The position numbers were made by a program, and so were the translations under genes. Shown here in pieces: positions 9,356-37,808 of a DNA stretch of 38,269 bases; position 1 is the stretch's first letter, and each line of letters starts with the position of its first letter. The notes under the pieces are model-generated. The model saw only the letters and a program-made list of their open reading frames with translations. It was not told the DNA's origin and ran no database searches. The DNA is from an uncultured bacterium. Lineage in GTDB: Bacteria; T1Sed10-126; CAYPTI01. The stretch is taken from NCBI GenBank assembly GCA_964413525.1, contig CAYPTI010000003.1, positions 1 through 38,269 of the forward strand, given 5' to 3'.

Positions 9356-9386
9356 GCGTACAGAAACAACCTCCAGTTGGTTTCGG

Positions 9387-9413
9387 TTGGACCGCTTCAA
9401 CAAAGCGGTCCAA
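9387..9413 (-). promoter_or_regulatory. stem-loop in the rpsO-pnp intergenic region
   Basis: TTGGACCGC / GCGGTCCAA form a 9-bp perfect stem with a 9-nt loop, lying between the rpsO stop and the pnp start. In E. coli the rpsO-pnp spacer carries a terminator or RNase III-processed hairpin; equivalence here is inferred. No U-run follows. Confidence 0.4.
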
Positions 9414-9444
9414 TCGAGAAAGTAAGGTGATTGGTGCTCGGGCG

Positions 9445-23130: not shown

Positions 23131-23661
23131 GTGCCGCTACCGGAGGAAAGCTGAAAGGGGCAAGGGTACCGCACAAGAACCCTGGAAAGAAACCCCGCTC
23201 GCGCCCCGGTTTCCCATACCCCGGCGAGAAGGTTTCCGGGGCGAAGGGTCGATCCGACAGGGTTCGCTCGTGAGCCTGTCCCAACCGTTCATTATCGACT
23301 CTCTACCGCTGAACGGCGAAGAATTTTCCGGGTCGGGCCGTCGTCAGGGATTGTATGGCTTCGACTGGTTCAGGTTACCCGGTCCGATCGAGGATCGATA
23401 GAGAATTCGGATAACCGGGTCTGGGGCAATCACCCTGTTCCGGGGGGCTCAACGAAGTGCTCTCCGTTCGGAATCCGTTCGCAGGAAGGCCGCTGGCTTA
23501 ACGCCGGTTCGACCTCCCGGGCGAAGCAGACACGAGGGCGGTCAGGAACCGGGTCCTAAAGGGGGTTGTTCCGGACGAACCTATACGAGCCTCCGACGCG
23601 TATCAGAGGGATCAATCGGGAGAAACGCCAGAAGGGGAGGTCGGTTGACAGAAGAAAAAAA

Positions 23662-23737
23662 TGGCTCCGCGGCCCGGACTCGAACCGGGGACAAGTCGGT
23701 TAACAGCCGACTGCTCTACCAGCTGAGCTACCGCGGA
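23662..23737 (-). tRNA. tRNA-Asn (anticodon GTT), CCA encoded
   Basis: Folded by hand. Acceptor TCCGCGG/CCGCGGA, D arm GCTC-AGCTGGTA-GAGC, anticodon arm GTCGG-CTGTTAA-CCGAC, variable TTGTC, T arm CCCGG-TTCGAGT-CCGGG, discriminator G, CCA. 76 nt, followed by a T7 run. Confidence 0.95.
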
Positions 23738-23797
23738 GCGATGGCTTCGAACCGAAAAGTGTACGATCAAATCCCGCCTCAGAACAATAGGGACCGG

Positions 23798-24337
23798 TTA
23801 GGAGGACGCGGCTCCGGCCTCCCGAAACAGCGACTCAAACACCTCCGGGTCCGGGGGCCAAGATGCCTCGGACGGACCCGGCCAGCCGAATTCCTTCAAC
23901 CGATAACAGCGCTGAGCCGTGGACAGCAGGGAATTGGAAAGCCGTCCGCGTTCCGAATCGTCGCCGGGGGGCACTTCGATCCAGACCGGACTCAGCACGG
24001 AAAGAATGGCACTCAACATGCCCTCCACTCCCCCGGCCCGGGCGACGAGAATCCGGCGGTAGGGGTGACGGGACTGCTGTTTGCTCAGGTAAACGTAGCA
24101 CTTGCTGACAAATTCCATCCGTTCCCGTTCGTCGTACGGAGCCTCGGTATCCAGGTAGATGTTCAACCGGTGGATCGAACCACTCTCCACCGATTCGCGG
24201 GAGAACTGATGCTGTGGGCTCGGACAGATCAGATCCACTTCCCCAACCCCATCAAGAGACTGGCGAAGCCCCCACCAGTAGGGGTTCCGGTACTCGTAGG
24301 GTGGAACGTCCAGGGTCACCACGGCAAGCGAACTCAC
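23798..24337 (-). CDS. hypothetical protein
   Basis: 179-aa ORF with a GTG start and acidic composition like neighbouring genes. No motif I recognise. The overlapping + strand ORF (23645..24343) crosses the tRNA and is rejected. Confidence 0.5.
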   Translation of the reverse strand: MSSLAVVTLDVPPYEYRNPYWWGLRQSLDGVGEVDLICPSPQHQFSRESVESGSIHRLNIYLDTEAPYDERERMEFVSKCYVYLSKQQSRHPYRRILVARAGGVEGMLSAILSVLSPVWIEVPPGDDSERGRLSNSLLSTAQRCYRLKEFGWPGPSEASWPPDPEVFESLFREAGAASS

Positions 24338-24415
24338 GCTTGAAGCCGACCGGTTAGCCCGATCGGTCGAGCCCGCTCACCGAGCGGCGGAGATCCCCCG
24401 AAATCGGAGCGGGAT

Positions 24416-25306
24416 TCAGCCGGAACCGTCCGAGGTTACGTCCACCGGTTCGTCCCGGACCTCGTCCCCGATGGGTTTGTCATCGCGAGCCCGAGCCCGC
24501 TGCTTCCCCTCTTCGTCCAGCCGATAATGGTCGGCGGTGCCGTCGGTGTGGAGTTTTAAAATTTCCGACCAGACCGAAATGGCGATGTCCCCGGGTTTCG
24601 AGGTCCCCAGCCGCAACCCGATCGGAGCGTAGACCCGATCGTCGTCCGCCGGATTCACCCCGGCCCGTTCCTCCAGGTTGCGAAACAGGCGGATGCACTT
24701 GGTGTCGGAGCCGATCATCCCGATGTAGGCGGCGTCCGAATCCAGAACCTGCTCCATGATCTGGATGTCGGTGTCGTGGCAGCGCGTGATGATGGAAACG
24801 TAGGTGTTCTCATCGATGGTTACGTGATCCGCCCAGTCGTCAAAATCGACGTGAAGTACCTTCGAGGCGCCGGGAAATTTATCGGGATCGGCGAACTCCT
24901 CCCGGTCGTCCACGATGGTGTAGGACCGTCCGATGGCATCCCCCACGCGAGCGATCGCCTCCCCGACGTGGCCGGCCCCGAATTGAAGCAGGTGGAAGGA
25001 ACGGCGTTCCACACCGATGAAGAATTCAACCTTCCCACCGCAGTACATGTTCAGCTCGTTGGGTTCCAGCCGGTGGCTGACCTTCTGACTTTCGTTTTCC
25101 TCAATGGCCTGTTTGGCCTGCTCGATAACAAAGGCCTCCATGGCTCCGCCGCCGACGGACCCCTCGATGGATCCGTCCTCCCGGACCAGCATTTTGGAAC
25201 CGATCTTGCGGGGGGAGGAATTGACGGTGTCGGTCACCGTCACCAGAGCGTAGGGTTCCCCCTCGGTTTGCAGGTCAAGCGCGGTTTCATGCAGTGAATC
25301 ACTCAA
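24416..25306 (-). CDS. XdhC/CoxI-family accessory protein
   Basis: N-terminal XdhC_CoxI part (YALVTVTDTVNSSPRKIGSKMLVREDGSIEGSVGGG) and a Rossmann-like part (LLQFGAGHVGEAIARV...YVSIITRCHDTD...AYIGMIGS). Confidence 0.8.
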   Translation of the reverse strand: MSDSLHETALDLQTEGEPYALVTVTDTVNSSPRKIGSKMLVREDGSIEGSVGGGAMEAFVIEQAKQAIEENESQKVSHRLEPNELNMYCGGKVEFFIGVERRSFHLLQFGAGHVGEAIARVGDAIGRSYTIVDDREEFADPDKFPGASKVLHVDFDDWADHVTIDENTYVSIITRCHDTDIQIMEQVLDSDAAYIGMIGSDTKCIRLFRNLEERAGVNPADDDRVYAPIGLRLGTSKPGDIAISVWSEILKLHTDGTADHYRLDEEGKQRARARDDKPIGDEVRDEPVDVTSDGSG

Positions 25307-25552
25307 CCGTTTCCCTCCTGACGGAAGCTCCGATGGATTTCGCTGACTACAAGTATATCGTCAGCCCCCCGGTTCACGGAAGCCTGGAGCCTCCCCTTCC
25401 GAACCAGTGGTCGCACCCATGCGACGTATTCATCACGTCCGTGTCATCCAACTCTGATTCCTGATATTCTGTTGGTCCGCCAACCGAGTTTCGGCGGGTT
25501 CATTCGCTAACTATTGTCTTTTGAAATTGATTGATTCACGGGGGACCTGCTC

Positions 25553-28500
25553 ATGATCGAACGATGGTATCCGAACGTCAACCTCGGACTGACGGCCGAG
25601 TTTCTCCACCGGTGTGAGGGCCGCTCGCTGGTCCTGGTGCCGGACGAAGAGACGGCCCGGGAACTGCAAGTTAACTTGAATACACTCATGGGGGATGGTG
25701 CGGCCTACCTTCCGGGGTGGGATCAGTTACCCGCCCGGGAGAAACCACCCGAACCCCTTCGGCAGCACAGGAGACTGCGGACGGTCGACTGGCTGGAGTC
25801 CGACGGTCGGGTCCTGCTCACCACGCCGGAGGGCCTTGGGACCGTTCTCCTCCACCCGAACTCCGTCCGCAGCCTTCGGCTGGCCCCCGGCGACCGGTTC
25901 GATCCGGTCGACCTGATCCGGCGGTTGAGCGACCTGGGCTACCGGCGTCAGGACCTGGTTACCGAACCGGGCGACGTCTCCCTTCGCGGGGACCTGCTCG
26001 ACGTGTATCCGCCCGACAAACCGTTTCCGGTCCGGCTGGAATTCTTCGACGACGAACTTGAATCCCTTGACTACTTCCACCCGAATTCCCAGATGGTGGC
26101 CGACCGGGTCCTTACCCCGCCGTTCACGATTCGAGCCCGGACCGAATTCACCACCGATCCCGACGAGCGGGACCGGTTTCGGAAGACCTTATCCACGTTC
26201 ATTTCCGGAAATGAGCGAGCCGAATCGAACGACGACGAACCCATCCACTGGTTCCTGGGGGCCGACCGCCGAGAGACGGCCTATCCGGACGAACTTTTTC
26301 AGCCGGATCGGCTGGTCCTGTTTGACCATCGCCGGATTCGTCAGCGCTGCCGGGAATGGGACCGGGAGGTGGAGTTGCTGAGCGACGATCACCCGGCTTG
26401 GGGGACCCATCGAACGGTCGATTCCTTCCCGGCGGAATTTCGGGAGCCGGTCCATCTCCTTTCCCCCCGGGAGGATCCTCCCGAGGAGGAAACGGAGGAA
26501 GGTCACCTGGGGGAACCGCTCTCGATCACGGGGTCCTTCGGACTGGAAAACGAACCGATCGAACGGTTTCTGGAACGGGTTGAAACCGCCGCTTCCGCCA
26601 CGGACACCGTCTACGTTCACGCGGAACAGGAGTCACTCCTGGAGCGAATACAAATTTTGTTACGGGAACGACGCTCGGACAATGGAAGCTTCCCGGCGGA
26701 CCGGATCGATTTCGTCGGCCGTCCATGGCGTGGTTCCTTCCGGACCGAGGATATCGCTCGGCTGTCCCTGGACGACTTCTTCAACCGAACGGTGGGCCGG
26801 GAACGGATCGGCCCCCGCAGCGGCCGGACGGAGTACCTGGAATCCTTCGAAGACCTGGAGGCCGGTGACCTGGTCGTCCACGAGGACTTCGGGATCGGTC
26901 GATTCCACGGCCTCCGTCGCGTCCACTCGGCCGGTCAGACCCGGGATTGCATTCATATCGAGTACGCCAACGAAGACCGGTTGTTCCTGCCGCCGGATCA
27001 GATCGGACGGGTCCAGAAATACCTCGCCGACTCCGGGTACACTCCGCCGCTGACCTCACTTTCCGACGAGCGCTGGAACCGGGTGAAAAAACAGGTTCAG
27101 GAGGACCTCGAGGACCTGGCCTCCGACCTGCTTGAACTCTACATGGTGCGGGAGGAGGCTGAAGTCGAACCCTTCCCCGAGGCCGGGGTCGAACAGGCAC
27201 AGTTCGAGGCCTCCTTCCCCTACCGGGAAACTCCCGACCAGCAGCGGGCCATCGAAGAAACCCTTCGGGACCTTTCGACGGGGACTCCGATGAATCGGTT
27301 GATCTGCGGTGACTCCGGCTACGGGAAGACGGAGGTCGCCCTGCGGGCCACCTTCCAGACTGTCGCCGCCGGCAGCCAGGTCGCGGTCCTGGTGCCCACC
27401 ACCGTGCTGGCCCGTCAGCACGGTCAGACCTTCCGGCAGCGGTTCGCAACCTTCCCCTACGAGGTCCGCGTCCTGTCCCGGTTCACCGACGCCGACGAGG
27501 AACGCCGAACCGTCCGGGCGCTGGCCTCGGGAGAGGTGGACGTGGTGATCGGAACCCACCGGTTGCTGGGGGACGACATCGAATTTTCCGACCTCGGGCT
27601 GCTGGTCATTGACGAGGAGCAGCGGTTCGGGGTCAAGCAGAAGGAGACCCTGAAATTTTACCGGGAAAACGTCAACGTCCTGACCCTCTCGGCCACCCCC
27701 ATTCCCCGAACCCTCTACATGTCGCTGTCCGGGGTCCAGGACATCAGCGTGATCAATTCCCCGCCGGAGGAGCGGAACCCGATCGACATCAACCTCGGAA
27801 GTTTTGACCGGTCGCGGGCCGCCGGGGCCCTCGAACAAGAACTGCAGCGGGACGGTCAAATCTTCTGGATCCGGAACCGGATCCGGCACCTTGAAGAAGA
27901 GGCTCACCTGGTCCGGTCGATGGTTCCCGACGGAACCACCGTTGAGGTCGCCCACGGTCGGATGGACCGGGAGAACCTCAGGGACGTCATGAACCGGTTC
28001 TACGAGGGAGAAGTGGACGTGCTGGTCTGCACGACCATTGTGGAGGCCGGACTCGATTGTCCCAACGCCAACACCATGATCATCCGCAACGCCCACCGGT
28101 ACGGTCTGGCCCAGCTCTACCAGCTCCGGGGCCGCATCGGCCGCAGCCATCGGAAGGCCCGGGCCCATCTATTTTACCCGGACTCCGTGGACCTGACCGA
28201 GGAGGCGGAAGCCCGGTTGGACACGATTAAACGGTCCGCCGAGCTGGGGTCCGGGTTTGAAATCGCCATGCGGGACCTGGAGATCCGCGGCGCCGGAAGC
28301 CTGCTGGGCAAGCAGCAGCACGGCAACATCCGGGCCCTGGGATTTCCGCTCTACTGCAAACTGCTCCAGCGGACCGTCCGGCGCCTCCGGGAAGGATTCG
28401 AGGTCCCCGAGCCTTTCCCGAAACTCCCCCTGCCCGGGGTCCATTACCTGCCGGAGGAATACGTCCCCGACGAACGGGCCCGGATCCGTCAGTACCAGGC

Positions 28501-28846
28501 GCTGGCCGCCTGCCGAACCCCGGAGGAAATGGACGAACTGGAATCCCGGTGGAAGTCGACCTTTGGCCCGCTTCCGGAGCCGGCAAGCGAACTGTTGACC
28601 CGTCACCGATTTAAAATCACGGCCACCCGGCACGGCTGGACCGACCTGCGGTATCGGAACCAGGAGCTGAACCTGGCCGCCACGAACGGAACGGAACTCC
28701 TGAACCGGGCCGCGGAACGGGCCGGTTGTACGGGAACAAGCCGGGGAAACCGGTTCTTCGTCCGTCAGCTGACCCCCGAACGGGTTCCTGCATTCCTGGA
28801 AGCCTCGGTCGAACCCCAGCCGGTCGTGTCGACGAATCCCGCCTAG
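25553..28846 (+). CDS. mfd: transcription-repair coupling factor Mfd
   Basis: 1097 aa. UvrB-homology N-terminus, CarD-like region ([15 protein letters not shown]), helicase motifs [14 protein letters not shown] and [15 protein letters not shown]-terminal domain. Ends in TAG. Confidence 0.96.
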
Positions 28847-29125
28847 CCCGATTCCTCTTCTCATTCCTTTCATCCCGTTCCCCCGACCCTCAACCTCAGA
28901 CGGATCAAATCCCATTTGTTGGGTAACTTTGGATTCCCGTCGATTGGGAACCGGCTGATTCATGCCGCCATCACCTCCGATTCCGGAGGGCCTTCCTCCG
29001 AGTTGAAACCAGCTCGGCGGTCCGAGAACCATCCGGGGCGACTGACTTCCATCATGGTTGGGACCCAATCCCAAATACAGGAAGGAAAACGAGTAGAGCC
29101 AACAATTCCGACGCGAGCCGATGGG

Positions 29126-29313
29126 GTCCCGAATGGTGTGGAAAGACGGTCTCAAAACGGGTCTGATTTCACCGTCCCGGAACCAACCGTGGACCACCAA
29201 CCATCCCGAACGGTCTGAATCGACACGGGATAAGGTTCCTGATCCGAGAGGCGGAATCACCCGGGGAGTCAGAACCTGACTGACCGAGAAGGATGGGCCG
29301 GGGCCATTTTTAC
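29126..29313 (+). ncRNA. candidate structured RNA or repeat element, copy 1 of 2 (family unknown)
   Basis: Full-length alignment to 34125-34314 on the same strand. Conserved blocks, non-codon-like divergence, a shared long-range helix, a variable hairpin (AGTCAG-aac-CTGACT) and a terminal T5 run. See findings. Confidence 0.45.
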
Positions 29314-29352
29314 ACCCAAAAATGGACGCAACCCGTGAGGTCGCCGGCGGGA

Positions 29353-30237
29353 TCAGGCTTTGTTCAGAAGATCGATCAATCCGTGGAACGGGGTGGGAAA
29401 CCGGTAGCTGAACGCCAGGTCCTCCTGCAACTTCGTCGACCCGACCCGTTTCTGGGGTTTCAGCAGCCCGAGTCGCCTGTCGGAGTAGCGCTCCTCGGCC
29501 TCCTCCCACGAGACCCGGGTGATGGTGGACGGGTCCCGACCGGTCGCTCGATACAAAAATTCCACCAGATCCCCCAGGGGGGAGGGACGGCGGTCCACCA
29601 GGTTGTAGATTCCGGTTTGGTTCCCGGCCGCAAGCAACACGATCACCCGGACCAGGTCCTCCACCCGGATCCGGTTGGTCCAGTTGTCCCCCTCCCCGAC
29701 GAGTTCGTACTCCTCCGACAGGTACCGTTCGGCGGCGTTTCGACCGGGTCCGTAAATTCCGCCGATCCGACACCGGACCAGAGCCCGCTCGGGCAACCCG
29801 TCCTGCAGGAGGGTTTCGACCCTCCGACGGAGCTCCCCCGACTCGCTGAAGGGGGACATCGGGGTGGTCTCAGTCACCCATTCTCCTCCGGCGTCCCCGT
29901 ACACCGAAGTGGAGCTCAGGTAGACAAACCGTTCGAGCCGGCCAACGGGCGCCCGGTCCAGAAATCGTTCCATCAGGATGACGCCTTTCTCCAACCCGAG
30001 CCGGATGGACGGACCCGGGGTGAAGATCACCCGGAGCGACTCCTCCGAAAGCCCTTCCCAGAACCGTTCCATGGACCCGGGGTCCTCCAGATCGAACGGT
30101 TCGACCGGAAACGTCCCAGGGCCCGACTCGTCCAGTTCACCGGTCCGGGTGGTTCCCACGACCGACGCACCGCGATCGGCCAGTCGGCCGACCACCCGGG
30201 AACCCGTGTACCCCGCGCCAATGACTGCGTAGATCAT
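29353..30237 (-). CDS. NAD(P)-dependent epimerase/dehydratase-type SDR
   Basis: 294 aa. N-terminal Rossmann MIYAVIGAGYTGSRVVGRL (GxGxxG); SSTSVYG region typical of extended SDRs. Confidence 0.8.
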   Translation of the reverse strand: MIYAVIGAGYTGSRVVGRLADRGASVVGTTRTGELDESGPGTFPVEPFDLEDPGSMERFWEGLSEESLRVIFTPGPSIRLGLEKGVILMERFLDRAPVGRLERFVYLSSTSVYGDAGGEWVTETTPMSPFSESGELRRRVETLLQDGLPERALVRCRIGGIYGPGRNAAERYLSEEYELVGEGDNWTNRIRVEDLVRVIVLLAAGNQTGIYNLVDRRPSPLGDLVEFLYRATGRDPSTITRVSWEEAEERYSDRRLGLLKPQKRVGSTKLQEDLAFSYRFPTPFHGLIDLLNKA

Positions 30238-34097: not shown

Positions 34098-34124
34098 TCA
34101 AACCAACGTACTGTAAACGATTGT

Positions 34125-34314
34125 GTCCCGCATGGTGTGTAAATACGGTCTCCAAACGGATTTGATTTCTCCGTCCCGGAATCAACCGTCACGAACGACC
34201 CGAATCGACGCGGTATAAGGTTCCTTGATCCGGGAAACGAAATCACACCTCGGGCACGTACGTCGTGCATCCGGAACCGGTCGACCGAGAAGGATGTGCG
34301 GAGGTCGTTTTTAC
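34125..34314 (+). ncRNA. candidate structured RNA or repeat element, copy 2 of 2 (family unknown)
   Basis: Paralogue of 29126-29313. Helices TGATTTC(34163-69)/GAAATCA(34239-45), TCCCGGA(34174-80)/TCCGGGA(34229-35), TCAA/TTGA. Variable hairpin GCACG-tacgt-CGTGC (34254-68). T5 run at 34308-12. Confidence 0.45.
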
Positions 34315-34421
34315 CTACAACAGGGGCAGTGACCCTGTAAAAGGAGGGACCATGGGAGATTGTTCGATTCCAGCGGCCTGATTCGACCGCAACGATCATC
34401 CGTACGGAGGGAGGATTCATC

Positions 34422-34841
34422 ATGGACAACGAACGGATCGACCGGCTGCTCGAAACAACCCGGGTGATCGCCGTCGTCGGCTGTTCCGGAACGCCGTCCA
34501 AGGAAGCCCACCGGGTTCCTTCCTTCGTCCAGGATCAGGGCTACGATGTGGTGCCGGTGAACCCGAACCACGACGAACTCCTCGGGGTTCCCTGCTACCC
34601 CGATCTCTCGACCGCCCGGGACCGTCATCCGGACCCAATCCAGATGGTGAACGTCTTTCGGCCCGCTCCGGAGACCCCTGCCATCGCCCGCCAGACCGTA
34701 GACATCGGAGCAGAAGCCCTCTGGCTCCAGCTCGGCATCCGCCATCCCGAATCCCGGTCCATCGCGGACGAGGCCGGACTGGACTACGTGGAGGACCGCT
34801 GCATCTACCAGGAACTGAACCGGCGGATGACGTCTTCCTGA
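34422..34841 (+). CDS. CoA-binding domain protein (YccU/YneT-like)
   Basis: 139 aa. TRVIAVVGCSGTPSKEAHRVPSFVQDQGYDVVPVNPN and VNVFRPAPE are typical of the CoA_binding_2 family. GGAGGG SD. Confidence 0.8.
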   Translation: MDNERIDRLLETTRVIAVVGCSGTPSKEAHRVPSFVQDQGYDVVPVNPNHDELLGVPCYPDLSTARDRHPDPIQMVNVFRPAPETPAIARQTVDIGAEALWLQLGIRHPESRSIADEAGLDYVEDRCIYQELNRRMTSS

Positions 34842-36582: not shown

Positions 36583-37587
36583 TCAGCCGGGGAACTCAAA
36601 CGTTATTTTGCTCTCATCATCGGTATATATTTCCTGATTCTCCCCTTCCTTGATCCGGCCGAAAAGGTGATGTTCCACGTCGAGTTTCTCCCGGATGATG
36701 GAACGGTTTGATTCGTCGAGTTCAACCCCGATGCTGTTGCGTCCCTCCTCCCGGGCGGCGAGGGTCGTGGTCCCGCTGCCGAGAAACGGGTCCAGCACGG
36801 TCTCCCCGGAAAACGAGTACATCTTGATCAACCGCCGGGGCAACTCCTTTGGAAACTTGGCCACGTGATCATCCTGCCGGTCAGGCGGGAGTTCCCAGAT
36901 CCCCCGAAACCAGCGGGAGCGCTGTTGTTTGGTCAGTCGACTTTTTTCCCGGGCCTCCTCGTCGGGTCGAGGCCAGTCCCCCCGCTTCCGAAACAGCAAA
37001 ATATACTCATGTTCGTAGGTTACGTGGCCGTCCTTCGGGTAGTAGGTCGATCCCATCCACAGGCCTCCCCCGCTCGTGTTGGTTGTGGACACCTTCCGCC
37101 AGATGATGTTGCCCATGAAGTCAAACCCGAGTTCCCGTCCGATCCGGATGGTGTCGGCGGGAATCGGCTTCACCCGATACCGGTCGTAGTCCTCCGCCCG
37201 GAGGTACTGGTCCCCGATGTTGATCGCCAGTCGACAGCCCGACATCAACAGCCGATGGCACTCCGACCAGACAGACTTCAAATCCCCAAGATAGTCATCG
37301 TACGGCTGATCCGCACCGATCTGGCCCTCGGTTTCGTAATCTTTGATCTGCCAGTACGGGGGCGACGTCACCACCAGCCCGACGGACTCGTCAGGGATCT
37401 CCGGCAAGACGTCAAGTGCGTTTCCGAAAAGTACCCGGTGCGTGGTTGGAGGTTTCAACGTTCCCTCTCCAGAATCGGGGCTGACCAAACGGACGTTCTC
37501 CTCGAGCTGGTTCCACCCGTGTGGAGATCCCGGCTGAGGAGGTGTTGTCACCACGCACCGTAACAAACCGGGGTCGGTTTGAACCAC
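36583..37587 (-). CDS. beta-class N6-adenine / N4-cytosine DNA methyltransferase
   Basis: Catalytic motif IV LVVTSPPYW lies N-terminal to SAM motif I VLDPFLGSGTT, the beta-class order. GTG start without SD, so the N-terminus is uncertain. Confidence 0.85.
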   Translation of the reverse strand: MVQTDPGLLRCVVTTPPQPGSPHGWNQLEENVRLVSPDSGEGTLKPPTTHRVLFGNALDVLPEIPDESVGLVVTSPPYWQIKDYETEGQIGADQPYDDYLGDLKSVWSECHRLLMSGCRLAINIGDQYLRAEDYDRYRVKPIPADTIRIGRELGFDFMGNIIWRKVSTTNTSGGGLWMGSTYYPKDGHVTYEHEYILLFRKRGDWPRPDEEAREKSRLTKQQRSRWFRGIWELPPDRQDDHVAKFPKELPRRLIKMYSFSGETVLDPFLGSGTTTLAAREEGRNSIGVELDESNRSIIREKLDVEHHLFGRIKEGENQEIYTDDESKITFEFPG

Positions 37588-37808
37588 GAAGGTATGACGT
37601 TTACCCGGAAGCAGGAACGTTCGGGAGCTGACCGCCGAGGTGATTTTTATCTCCCGGATCGGGAGCTTTATCCCGCGTCAATTCAGGACGTTCGTTCCGT
37701 TTTGTGACCTAAGATTGGATCTGGATCGGCGAAATCAAACCGCTCGGAGGCCGTGTGGACATAAAATAGGAACAGAACAAAGGAGGGCAACGAGGTTCGC
37801 GAGGTCGA

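Follow-up and report, generated by a model that had tools for sequence, protein, structure and literature searches.

Bacterial genomes carry several classes of small interspersed intergenic repeats, which include ERIC/IRU, BIME/REP, the pneumococcal BOX, RUP and SPRITE repeats and the neisserial Correia elements. Multicopy paralogous, or sibling, small RNAs (sRNAs) are known as well, such as Qrr, LhrC and the neisserial NgncR_162/163 pair. Here we describe an element present in three copies on one contig (CAYPTI010000003.1, assembly GCA_964413525.1) from the metagenome-assembled genome of an uncultured bacterium; all 38,269 nucleotides (nt) of this stretch were analysed and are referred to below as the window. 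As to the described repeats, pneumococcal BOX, RUP and SPRITE are species-restricted, enriched downstream of coding sequences, and their orientation follows the coding strand (PMC3049150). It has also been reported that repeats of the ERIC, BIME, BOX and SPRITE type act on co-transcribed genes via their structures (PMC3049150).

It is close to, if somewhat short of, an even call that the element described here represents a lineage-restricted family of small interspersed non-coding intergenic repeats, co-transcribed with the genes that precede them. The copies found in the window are the following.

29119..29313, plus strand: copy 1, full unit of 195 nt (blastn ends against copy 2; nhmmer; Pfam of neighbours)
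34118..34314, plus strand: copy 2, full unit of 197 nt (blastn, nhmmer; Pfam of neighbours)
37612..37760, minus strand: copy 3, core and hairpin zone only, without the end modules (5' and 3') seen in copies 1 and 2 (nhmmer, core covariance model R1, segment identities)

Copies 1 and 2, both on the plus strand and spaced by 4999 nt, were aligned end-to-end by blastn (E 7e-27), and their homology stops sharply at the element ends, the 400 nt on either side remaining unaligned. Their column identity is 82% (MAFFT), and nhmmer recovers each of them at E ~1e-64. The original prediction had presented this pair as two copies of a candidate structured RNA; the whole-length alignment on the same strand and the common blocks that it listed were both confirmed. 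Its count of two has to be revised, as an nhmmer profile built from copies 1 and 2 alone also finds a third, diverged copy on the minus strand (37762-37636, E 2e-18). With the core covariance model R1 the three copies score 137.8, 125.6 and 123.6 bits (copy 3 being matched at 37760-37636 with 125.6 bits), and the next match in the window reaches 14 bits. All three copies lie within 9 kb. The best R1 match outside the three elements, at 9360-9421 (+), with 13.6 bits and a rough E of 0.005, falls on the junction of rpsO and pnp, antisense to these genes, and is probably noise.

The part common to all three copies is the central ~145 nt. In this core copies 1 and 2 are identical at 86/103 positions, copies 1 and 3 at 82/116 and copies 2 and 3 at 78/102, so that copy 3 is at 71-76% identity, while in the end modules of copies 1 and 2 it is at chance level (7-9/27 at the 5' end and 7-8/18 at the 3' end). 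By eye, its likeness to copy 1 runs on through GTCAG, the first arm of the copy 1 hairpin, to about 37612. Several indels of 1-16 nt separate the copies. Judged from this comparison, copies 1 and 2 are the younger pair, which has extra modules of 27 nt (5') and 31 nt (3'). Outside a variable zone the substitutions between these two are evenly spread (permutation fraction 0.76), which is the pattern to be expected of repeats under drift.

All three copies are intergenic, and the feature common to them is that each lies downstream of, and co-oriented with, a protein-coding gene. Copy 1 begins 272 nt past the end of mfd (25553-28846, +) and is followed by a convergent epimerase-family gene (29353-30237, -). 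Copy 2 begins only 21 nt past the typA stop (34097), with a CoA-binding-domain gene (34422-34841, +) 107 nt beyond the end of the copy. The core of copy 3 begins ~50 nt past the stop of an EAL-domain gene (37809), and a DNA methylase gene (36583-37587, -) comes next. From the position and orientation of the copies it follows that co-transcription with the upstream gene is the simplest source of any RNA. Moreover, of the window's eight intergenic gaps of 200 nt or more the copies fill three, which suggests that the element family is common genome-wide.

The restriction to one lineage was assessed in nine loci of relatives, 147 kb in all, reached via TypA and Mfd homologues; three of these are mfd neighbourhoods with the epimerase and XdhC genes, as in the window. 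Neither nhmmer nor the covariance model run with filters off found a copy of the element in these 147 kb, the relatives being distant. Among 5.8 billion proteins, the nearest TypA homologues are at most 70% identical and the nearest Mfd is ~51% identical, and the host lineage is therefore deep-branching and barely sampled. From these loci, no more can be concluded than that deep conservation of the element is lacking. In a wider scan, the pattern GAATNGACNCGGNATAANGNTCC, which fits all three copies, gave 11 matches in genome contigs and 8 in metagenome contigs, all of them single, in unrelated organisms and confined to the pattern itself, and 0 matches in viral contigs. A BLASTN search against plasmids and phages gave no match.

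If the element is such a repeat, it would be carried in the transcripts of mfd, typA and the EAL gene, as 3' untranslated or inter-cistronic RNA, where its inverted repeat and local hairpins could make up a transcript-end or stability structure, as in the ERIC, BOX, BIME and SPRITE classes. The copies would have spread by duplication or mobilisation. Any role of the element, or effect of it on RNA, we infer by analogy with ERIC, BIME, BOX and SPRITE. The element resembles ERIC/BOX/SPRITE-type repeats in several respects. A non-coding unit of 100-200 nt recurs in one genome, its several copies diverged and placed at unrelated intergenic sites, near gene 3' ends and along the coding strand; it has internal inverted repeats and may be limited to one lineage (here, no copy in 147 kb of distant relatives or in the pattern scans). 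It is modular with a length-variable middle, like boxA-boxB-boxC, and one of its modules ends in a T run, as in SPRITE. Unlike those repeats, it has neither terminal inverted repeats nor target-site duplications nor a tight fold; it is not AT-rich (G+C of copy 1 is 57%), bears no sequence likeness to those families, is visible in three copies and comes with no candidate mobilising transposase.

Some of these differences weigh against our interpretation, and there are further points on that side. To call the element interspersed and present in many copies is to extrapolate from three copies on one 38-kb contig. The hallmarks of MITEs (miniature inverted-repeat transposable elements), namely terminal inverted repeats and a target-site duplication, were not found, and there is no transposase in the window; the fold z-score of the element is about 0, so it is not tightly folded, unlike classical MITEs, BOX and RUP. 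Co-orientation in three of three copies has a chance probability of 1 in 8. Finally, a copy 3 core at 71-76% between flanks at chance level could mean selection on the core, that is, function. Should the element be an interspersed repeat and nothing else, its importance would be local: it marks a chromosome rearrangement in a barely sampled lineage, it might serve for typing or be a marker of assembly problems, and it may influence the transcript ends of mfd and typA.

Features of mobile elements were also searched for. A local alignment of the first 45 nt to the last 45 nt in reverse complement gave, at best, a score of 10 for copy 1 (shuffle mean 10.5, fraction 0.71), which means no terminal inverted repeats; for copy 2 it gave 15 (fraction 0.04), at a non-terminal position and with no counterpart in copy 1. 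No target-site duplication is present in the flanks read (..CGAGC| |ACCCA.. for copy 1 and ..GTAAA| |CTACA.. for copy 2). A MITE was rejected on these grounds, the element having no insertion-sequence or MITE termini. A segmental duplication including flanks was rejected as well, because the homology ends exactly at the element ends and no TypA-like coding remnant lies upstream of copy 1. The genes of the window are of the housekeeping kind (rimP-nusA-infB-rbfA, ribF, pnp, ftsK, mfd, glnA, typA), with no transposase, integrase or reverse transcriptase among them, and an IS200/IS605 end, a TnpB guide RNA, a retron, an integron attC site and the template of a diversity-generating retroelement were dismissed for that reason and because the differences between the copies are not adenine-specific.

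The internal features of the element are as follows.

29119..29145, plus strand: copy 1, 5' module (CGATGGGGTCCCGAATGGTGTGGAAAG), which only copy 2 also has; 22/27 identical to copy 2 and 7/27 (chance) to copy 3
29146..29262, plus strand: copy 1, core, in all three copies (ACGGTCTC ... AATCACCC); alignment A2, R1 137.8 bits at 29140-29264
29164..29181, plus strand: copy 1, inverted repeat, 5' arm: TGATTTC a CCG TCCCGGA
29191..29204, plus strand: copy 1, 14-nt stretch GGACCACCAACCAT in the length-variable middle of the core, missing from copy 2
29242..29259, plus strand: copy 1, inverted repeat, 3' arm: TCCGAGA ggc GGAATCA; a single C.A mismatch and a single U.G pair
29267..29281, plus strand: copy 1, variable hairpin AGTCAG-aac-CTGACT, 6 bp
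29282..29313, plus strand: copy 1, 3' module (GACCGAGAAGGATG ... T5 at 29307-29311), which only copy 2 also has; 26/31 positions match copy 2, and copy 3 is matched no better than by chance
34163..34180, plus strand: copy 2, inverted repeat, 5' arm: TGATTTC tccg TCCCGGA
34229..34245, plus strand: copy 2, inverted repeat, 3' arm: TCCGGGA aac GAAATCA; 14/14 pairs standard
34254..34268, plus strand: copy 2, variable hairpin GCACG-tacgt-CGTGC, 5 bp
37720..37737, minus strand: copy 3, inverted repeat, 5' arm: TGATTTC gccg ATCCAGA
37641..37658, minus strand: copy 3, inverted repeat, 3' arm: TCCGGGA gata AAAATCA; 3/14 cells unpaired

An interrupted 14-bp inverted repeat is present in all three copies and encloses a middle of variable length. 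In this middle, the 14-nt insertion GGACCACCAACCAT at 29191 and an extra stretch elsewhere in copy 2 that offsets it (15-16 nt) had both been noted before and were found again, as were the T5 runs (at 29307 and, in copy 2, at 34308) and the unrelated hairpins of copies 1 and 2. At the site of GGACCACCAACCAT copy 3 has an unrelated stretch of similar length. One coordinate had to be corrected, TCCGAGA being located at 29242-29248 and not at 29244-29250. By our own estimate, the chance expectation of the 14-pair inverted repeat of copy 2 is ~0.004 per 200 nt, and the inverted repeat is not a chance feature. Nor is it the end of a mobile unit, because the three-copy homology extends past it on both sides.

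The arms of this repeat are the best-conserved part of the core, with 22/28 columns invariant as compared to 48/103 elsewhere (alignment A2). It is thus tempting to ask whether the element acts as DNA, either as a protein-binding platform with two inverted half-sites ~70 bp apart or as a recombination site. The arm substitutions are not pairing-preserving, which fits sequence-specific recognition better than RNA pairing. On the other hand, no known type of site has such a shape, the copies have no recombinase or regulator gene as a consistent neighbour, a binding site would be far shorter than the conserved stretch, and co-orientation with the upstream genes would be unexpected for a symmetric site. 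We therefore regard a DNA-level function as very unlikely.

At the right end of copy 1, pairing is possible between the T5 run and an A5 run that lies 7 nt downstream (CCATTTTT acaccc AAAAATGG, 29304-29325), and this stretch adjoins a terminator-like hairpin on the minus strand that belongs to the epimerase gene (29344-29328). On its right, copy 1 thus passes into what may be a transcript-end region for both directions.

The claim at the centre of the original prediction, that the element is a structured RNA gene, was not sustained by the folding analysis. Full-length copies 1 and 2 fold, on both strands, with z-scores of -0.24, -0.06, -0.64 and +0.73 relative to dinucleotide shuffles, and their minimum-energy structures differ. 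RNAalifold run on the three cores does recover both proposed helices, with a covariation term of -0.1 kcal/mol. Compared with 200 column-shuffled alignments, the best consensus energy, that of the core on the plus strand, has a z-score of -1.49 (fraction 0.08); the remaining alignment and strand combinations range from -0.9 to +0.3, and the structure conservation index is 0.34-0.52. In the 14 pairs of the two helices no compensatory change was found across the three copies (0 pairs changed on both sides), a test of low power with three sequences. Six substitutions fall in the helices, of which 2 preserve the pair by wobble and 4 break it. Covariation is therefore not seen when the third copy is added; the U.G pair of copy 1 that corresponds to U-A in copy 2 is real, but it is a one-sided change and not covariation. 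A plausible helix drawn from two paralogues is not in itself evidence of structure, and here the third copy mostly breaks it. A folded RNA structure is possible, although its support is weak and three sequences provide little power.

Signals that would delimit a transcript are equally scarce. A sigma-70 consensus scan, whose consensus may not fit this lineage, found no promoter-like site near copies 1 and 2, and a consensus scan for terminators, with the same reservation, found no plus-strand terminator-like site, either at the T5 runs or in the stretches that lead from mfd and typA to the element. The stems before the T5 runs are weak (-7.3 kcal/mol in copy 1 and -6.2 kcal/mol in copy 2, z about -0.7). 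Across the window terminator-like sites are no commoner than in shuffles, and canonical terminators may therefore be rare in this host.

These results bear mostly on the idea that copies 1 and 2 are independent paralogous genes for structured sRNAs of ~165-195 nt, transcribed from the plus strand and ending at T5, with copy 3 as a diverged or embedded relative. Several observations speak for it. A TGATTTC/GAAATCA helix comes out of each of the three core-fold predictions (z -1.45, -1.89 and -0.78) and of the consensus fold, and 90.5% of helix cells in the three copies are paired, as opposed to 24-60% when the 3' partners are slid. Unrelated perfect hairpins (6 bp in copy 1 and 5 bp in copy 2) occupy the same site, with a joint chance of ~0.004-0.015 under shuffling for a site that was picked post hoc; the 3' part of copy 1 (29262-29313) folds with a z-score of -2.9; the copy 3 core is better conserved than its flanks; and, as no Rfam family matches, the sRNAs would be new. 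Like Qrr, LhrC and NgncR_162/163, the copies are non-coding paralogues 100-200 nt long that cluster in one region, with 70-85% identity and a T-run end. Unlike these sibling sRNAs, they have no common promoter, no strong terminator hairpin and no identified conserved single-stranded seed, and copy 3 is devoid of either end module. Together with helices that gain no compensatory change and a consensus fold not significantly above column shuffles on either strand, full-length folds at z ~0 that differ between copies 1 and 2, the lack of a promoter-like site and the weak stem before T5, this makes independent sRNA genes rather unlikely. Furthermore, with copy 2 placed 21 nt past the typA stop, read-through is a simpler source of RNA, and a homologue is missing from the relatives' 147 kb.

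A broader version of the same idea is that the ~145-nt core is a new functional RNA element of this deep-branching lineage, working either as sibling sRNAs or as a protein-recognised 3' untranslated or inter-cistronic module. In that case the inverted repeat would be the main helix, the variable hairpins would be tolerated decorations, and the drop of copy 3 from a 71-76% core to flanks at chance would reflect selection on RNA. We consider this, too, unlikely, even if its consequences would be the larger ones: the core would belong to an undescribed RNA family, for which the three paralogues would be a starting alignment, in a lineage whose regulation is almost unstudied.

It could also be assumed that the core is a cis-acting 5' leader, riboswitch-like or an attenuator, of the CoA-binding protein gene at copy 2 and of the DNA methylase gene at copy 3, copy 1 having lost its gene. 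A co-directional gene does follow copies 2 and 3, the T5 run of copies 1 and 2 could serve as an attenuator, and a weak sigma-70-like site precedes copy 3 (TTGCCC at 37790-37785, a 16-nt spacer and TATTTT at 37768-37763). This site was recognised by eye, with 8/12 positions, below the scan threshold. It would start transcription at about the first base of the common core, or it may simply be the methylase promoter. Yet the downstream genes are functionally unrelated, and at copy 1 there is none, the next gene being convergent; the original prediction had argued from this against a 5' leader, and the argument stands. A conserved alternative pairing of terminator and antiterminator was not found, nor was an Rfam match or a signal of conserved structure. 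Known leaders of comparable length show conservation that reaches well outside a single genome, in contrast to an element that has no copy in the relatives' 147 kb. A leader function thus appears improbable, to about the same degree as a DNA-level one.

The database searches agree with an element that belongs to no described RNA family, as had been proposed. Rfam 15 holds 4227 models, including 6S, ykkC, TPP, T-box, HEARO and self-cleaving ribozymes. At gathering thresholds the sole hit in the whole window is tRNA-Asn (23665-23737), and the element is unmatched; at E up to 10, stretches of 200-500 nt around copies 1-3 return just eukaryotic small nucleolar and long non-coding RNAs and sX9, all noise at 8-14 bits. 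Three families were considered individually. Element words such as ACACGG, GGGAUAA, GGUUCC and UCCGAGAG resemble conserved words of the guanidine-I (ykkC) riboswitch. However, RF00442 gave no match at E up to 10 in a cmscan with lax filters on stretches of 197 and 201 nt, the words come in another order, and the downstream genes are not guanidine-related; ykkC was rejected by this search. A likeness in short words to the ykkC and TPP riboswitches (UCCGAGAG, GGUUCC, ACACGG and CUGAUCCGG) was rejected, neither model being matched at E up to 10. As to 6S RNA (RF00013 or related), a possible 6S-like closing stem can be read from copy 1, and in copy 2 it is in another register; 6S RNA was discarded, with no Rfam match, a fold z-score of about 0 and no stable rod-like fold.

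The element is non-coding. The copies have no reading frame in common and no protein homologue, while their alignment goes far beyond chance, so the description of the element as non-coding and paralogous holds. The frames were also correctly described as interrupted in one copy or another: one plus-strand frame of copy 1 is open for 52 codons (29121-29276), and it needs two frameshifts in copy 2 and meets an in-frame TAG in copy 3. The statement that substitutions have no third-position periodicity holds almost entirely. The synonymous fraction of this frame exceeds that of the others in all well-aligned blocks (0.40, 0.47 and 0.43, as compared to 0.15-0.39), with third-position synonymous examples such as TCA/TCT/TCG, CGG/CGA/CGT, ACA/ACG, AAG/AAA and CCT/CCC, and also ATT TCA/TCT/TCG CCG. 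The trend is non-significant once six frames are allowed for, and it is gone over the whole alignment.

One might suppose that the copies are decayed fragments of former protein-coding sequence, from a small open reading frame (ORF) family or the end of a mobile-element gene. The open frame of copy 1 with its synonymous fractions would fit this, as would the gap between copies 1 and 2 in the variable zone, which is 15 nt in the pairwise alignment, a multiple of 3, but 16 columns in the three-way one. Against it, apart from the non-significant excess and the frameshifts and stop, no ribosome-binding site precedes the ATG of the frame, the conceptual peptide has no Pfam match, and by our estimate such an open frame is expected in about one of six frames at the local G+C. 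An exhaustive phmmer search of 1.84 billion representatives returned one protein, P0121 (E 3e-5), a 357-aa putative repeat lipoprotein with seven repeats of VWK(D/N)GVKT(D/N)L; the conceptual peptide of copy 1 contains MVWKDGLKTGL. We reject P0121 as a homologue, since the short VWKDGVKTDL motif, recurring seven times, inflates the score of what is a motif coincidence. A long minus-strand ORF over copy 2 has no homologue. Decayed coding sequence is the least probable origin considered here, and a very slim one.

To return to the repeat family that we favour, its copy 1 sits in a part of the chromosome that has been reshuffled. In the window (24416-30237) the order is XdhC (-), mfd (+), epimerase (-), and in three distant relatives' loci (L026, L027 and L028) it is epimerase (+), mfd (+), XdhC (-), with the epimerase directly upstream of mfd. 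On this comparison of gene orders, the mfd neighbourhood has undergone rearrangement, with copy 1 at one of the junctions.

Several minor observations concern the regions between genes. Gaps of 534 and 678 nt flank the tRNA-Asn gene (23662-23737, -); no Pfam-supported gene lies in this region (window 23131-24415), and its ORF 23645-24343 has no domain match. Between copy 2 and the CoA-binding-protein gene there is a 9-codon ORF, ATG GGA GAT TGT TCG ATT CCA GCG GCC TGA (34352-34381), preceded by a strong Shine-Dalgarno-like AAAGGAGGG (window 34340-34381) and, just before that site, by the hairpin CAGGG-gcagtga-CCCTG (34321-34337). This ORF may be an upstream ORF or a leader peptide.

Two gene starts near the copies also deserve a comment. 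In the methylase ORF (36583-37587, -) GGAGAGGG stands before an in-frame TTG (37458), and residue 70 of the long form is where the Pfam domain starts, so the ORF probably starts later than its first GTG; if so, ~150 nt of unexplained non-coding sequence follow copy 3. The mechanical typA ORF, of 675 aa with a TTG start, exceeds P0001, the database protein of 590 aa with its start at ~32325, by ~85 codons. With the start at ~32325, the divergent glnA-typA intergenic region is therefore ~427 nt long, and it is in this region, before glnA, that the best minus-strand promoter-like site of the window is located (TTTACA-16-TATAGT with TG, 31982-31955).

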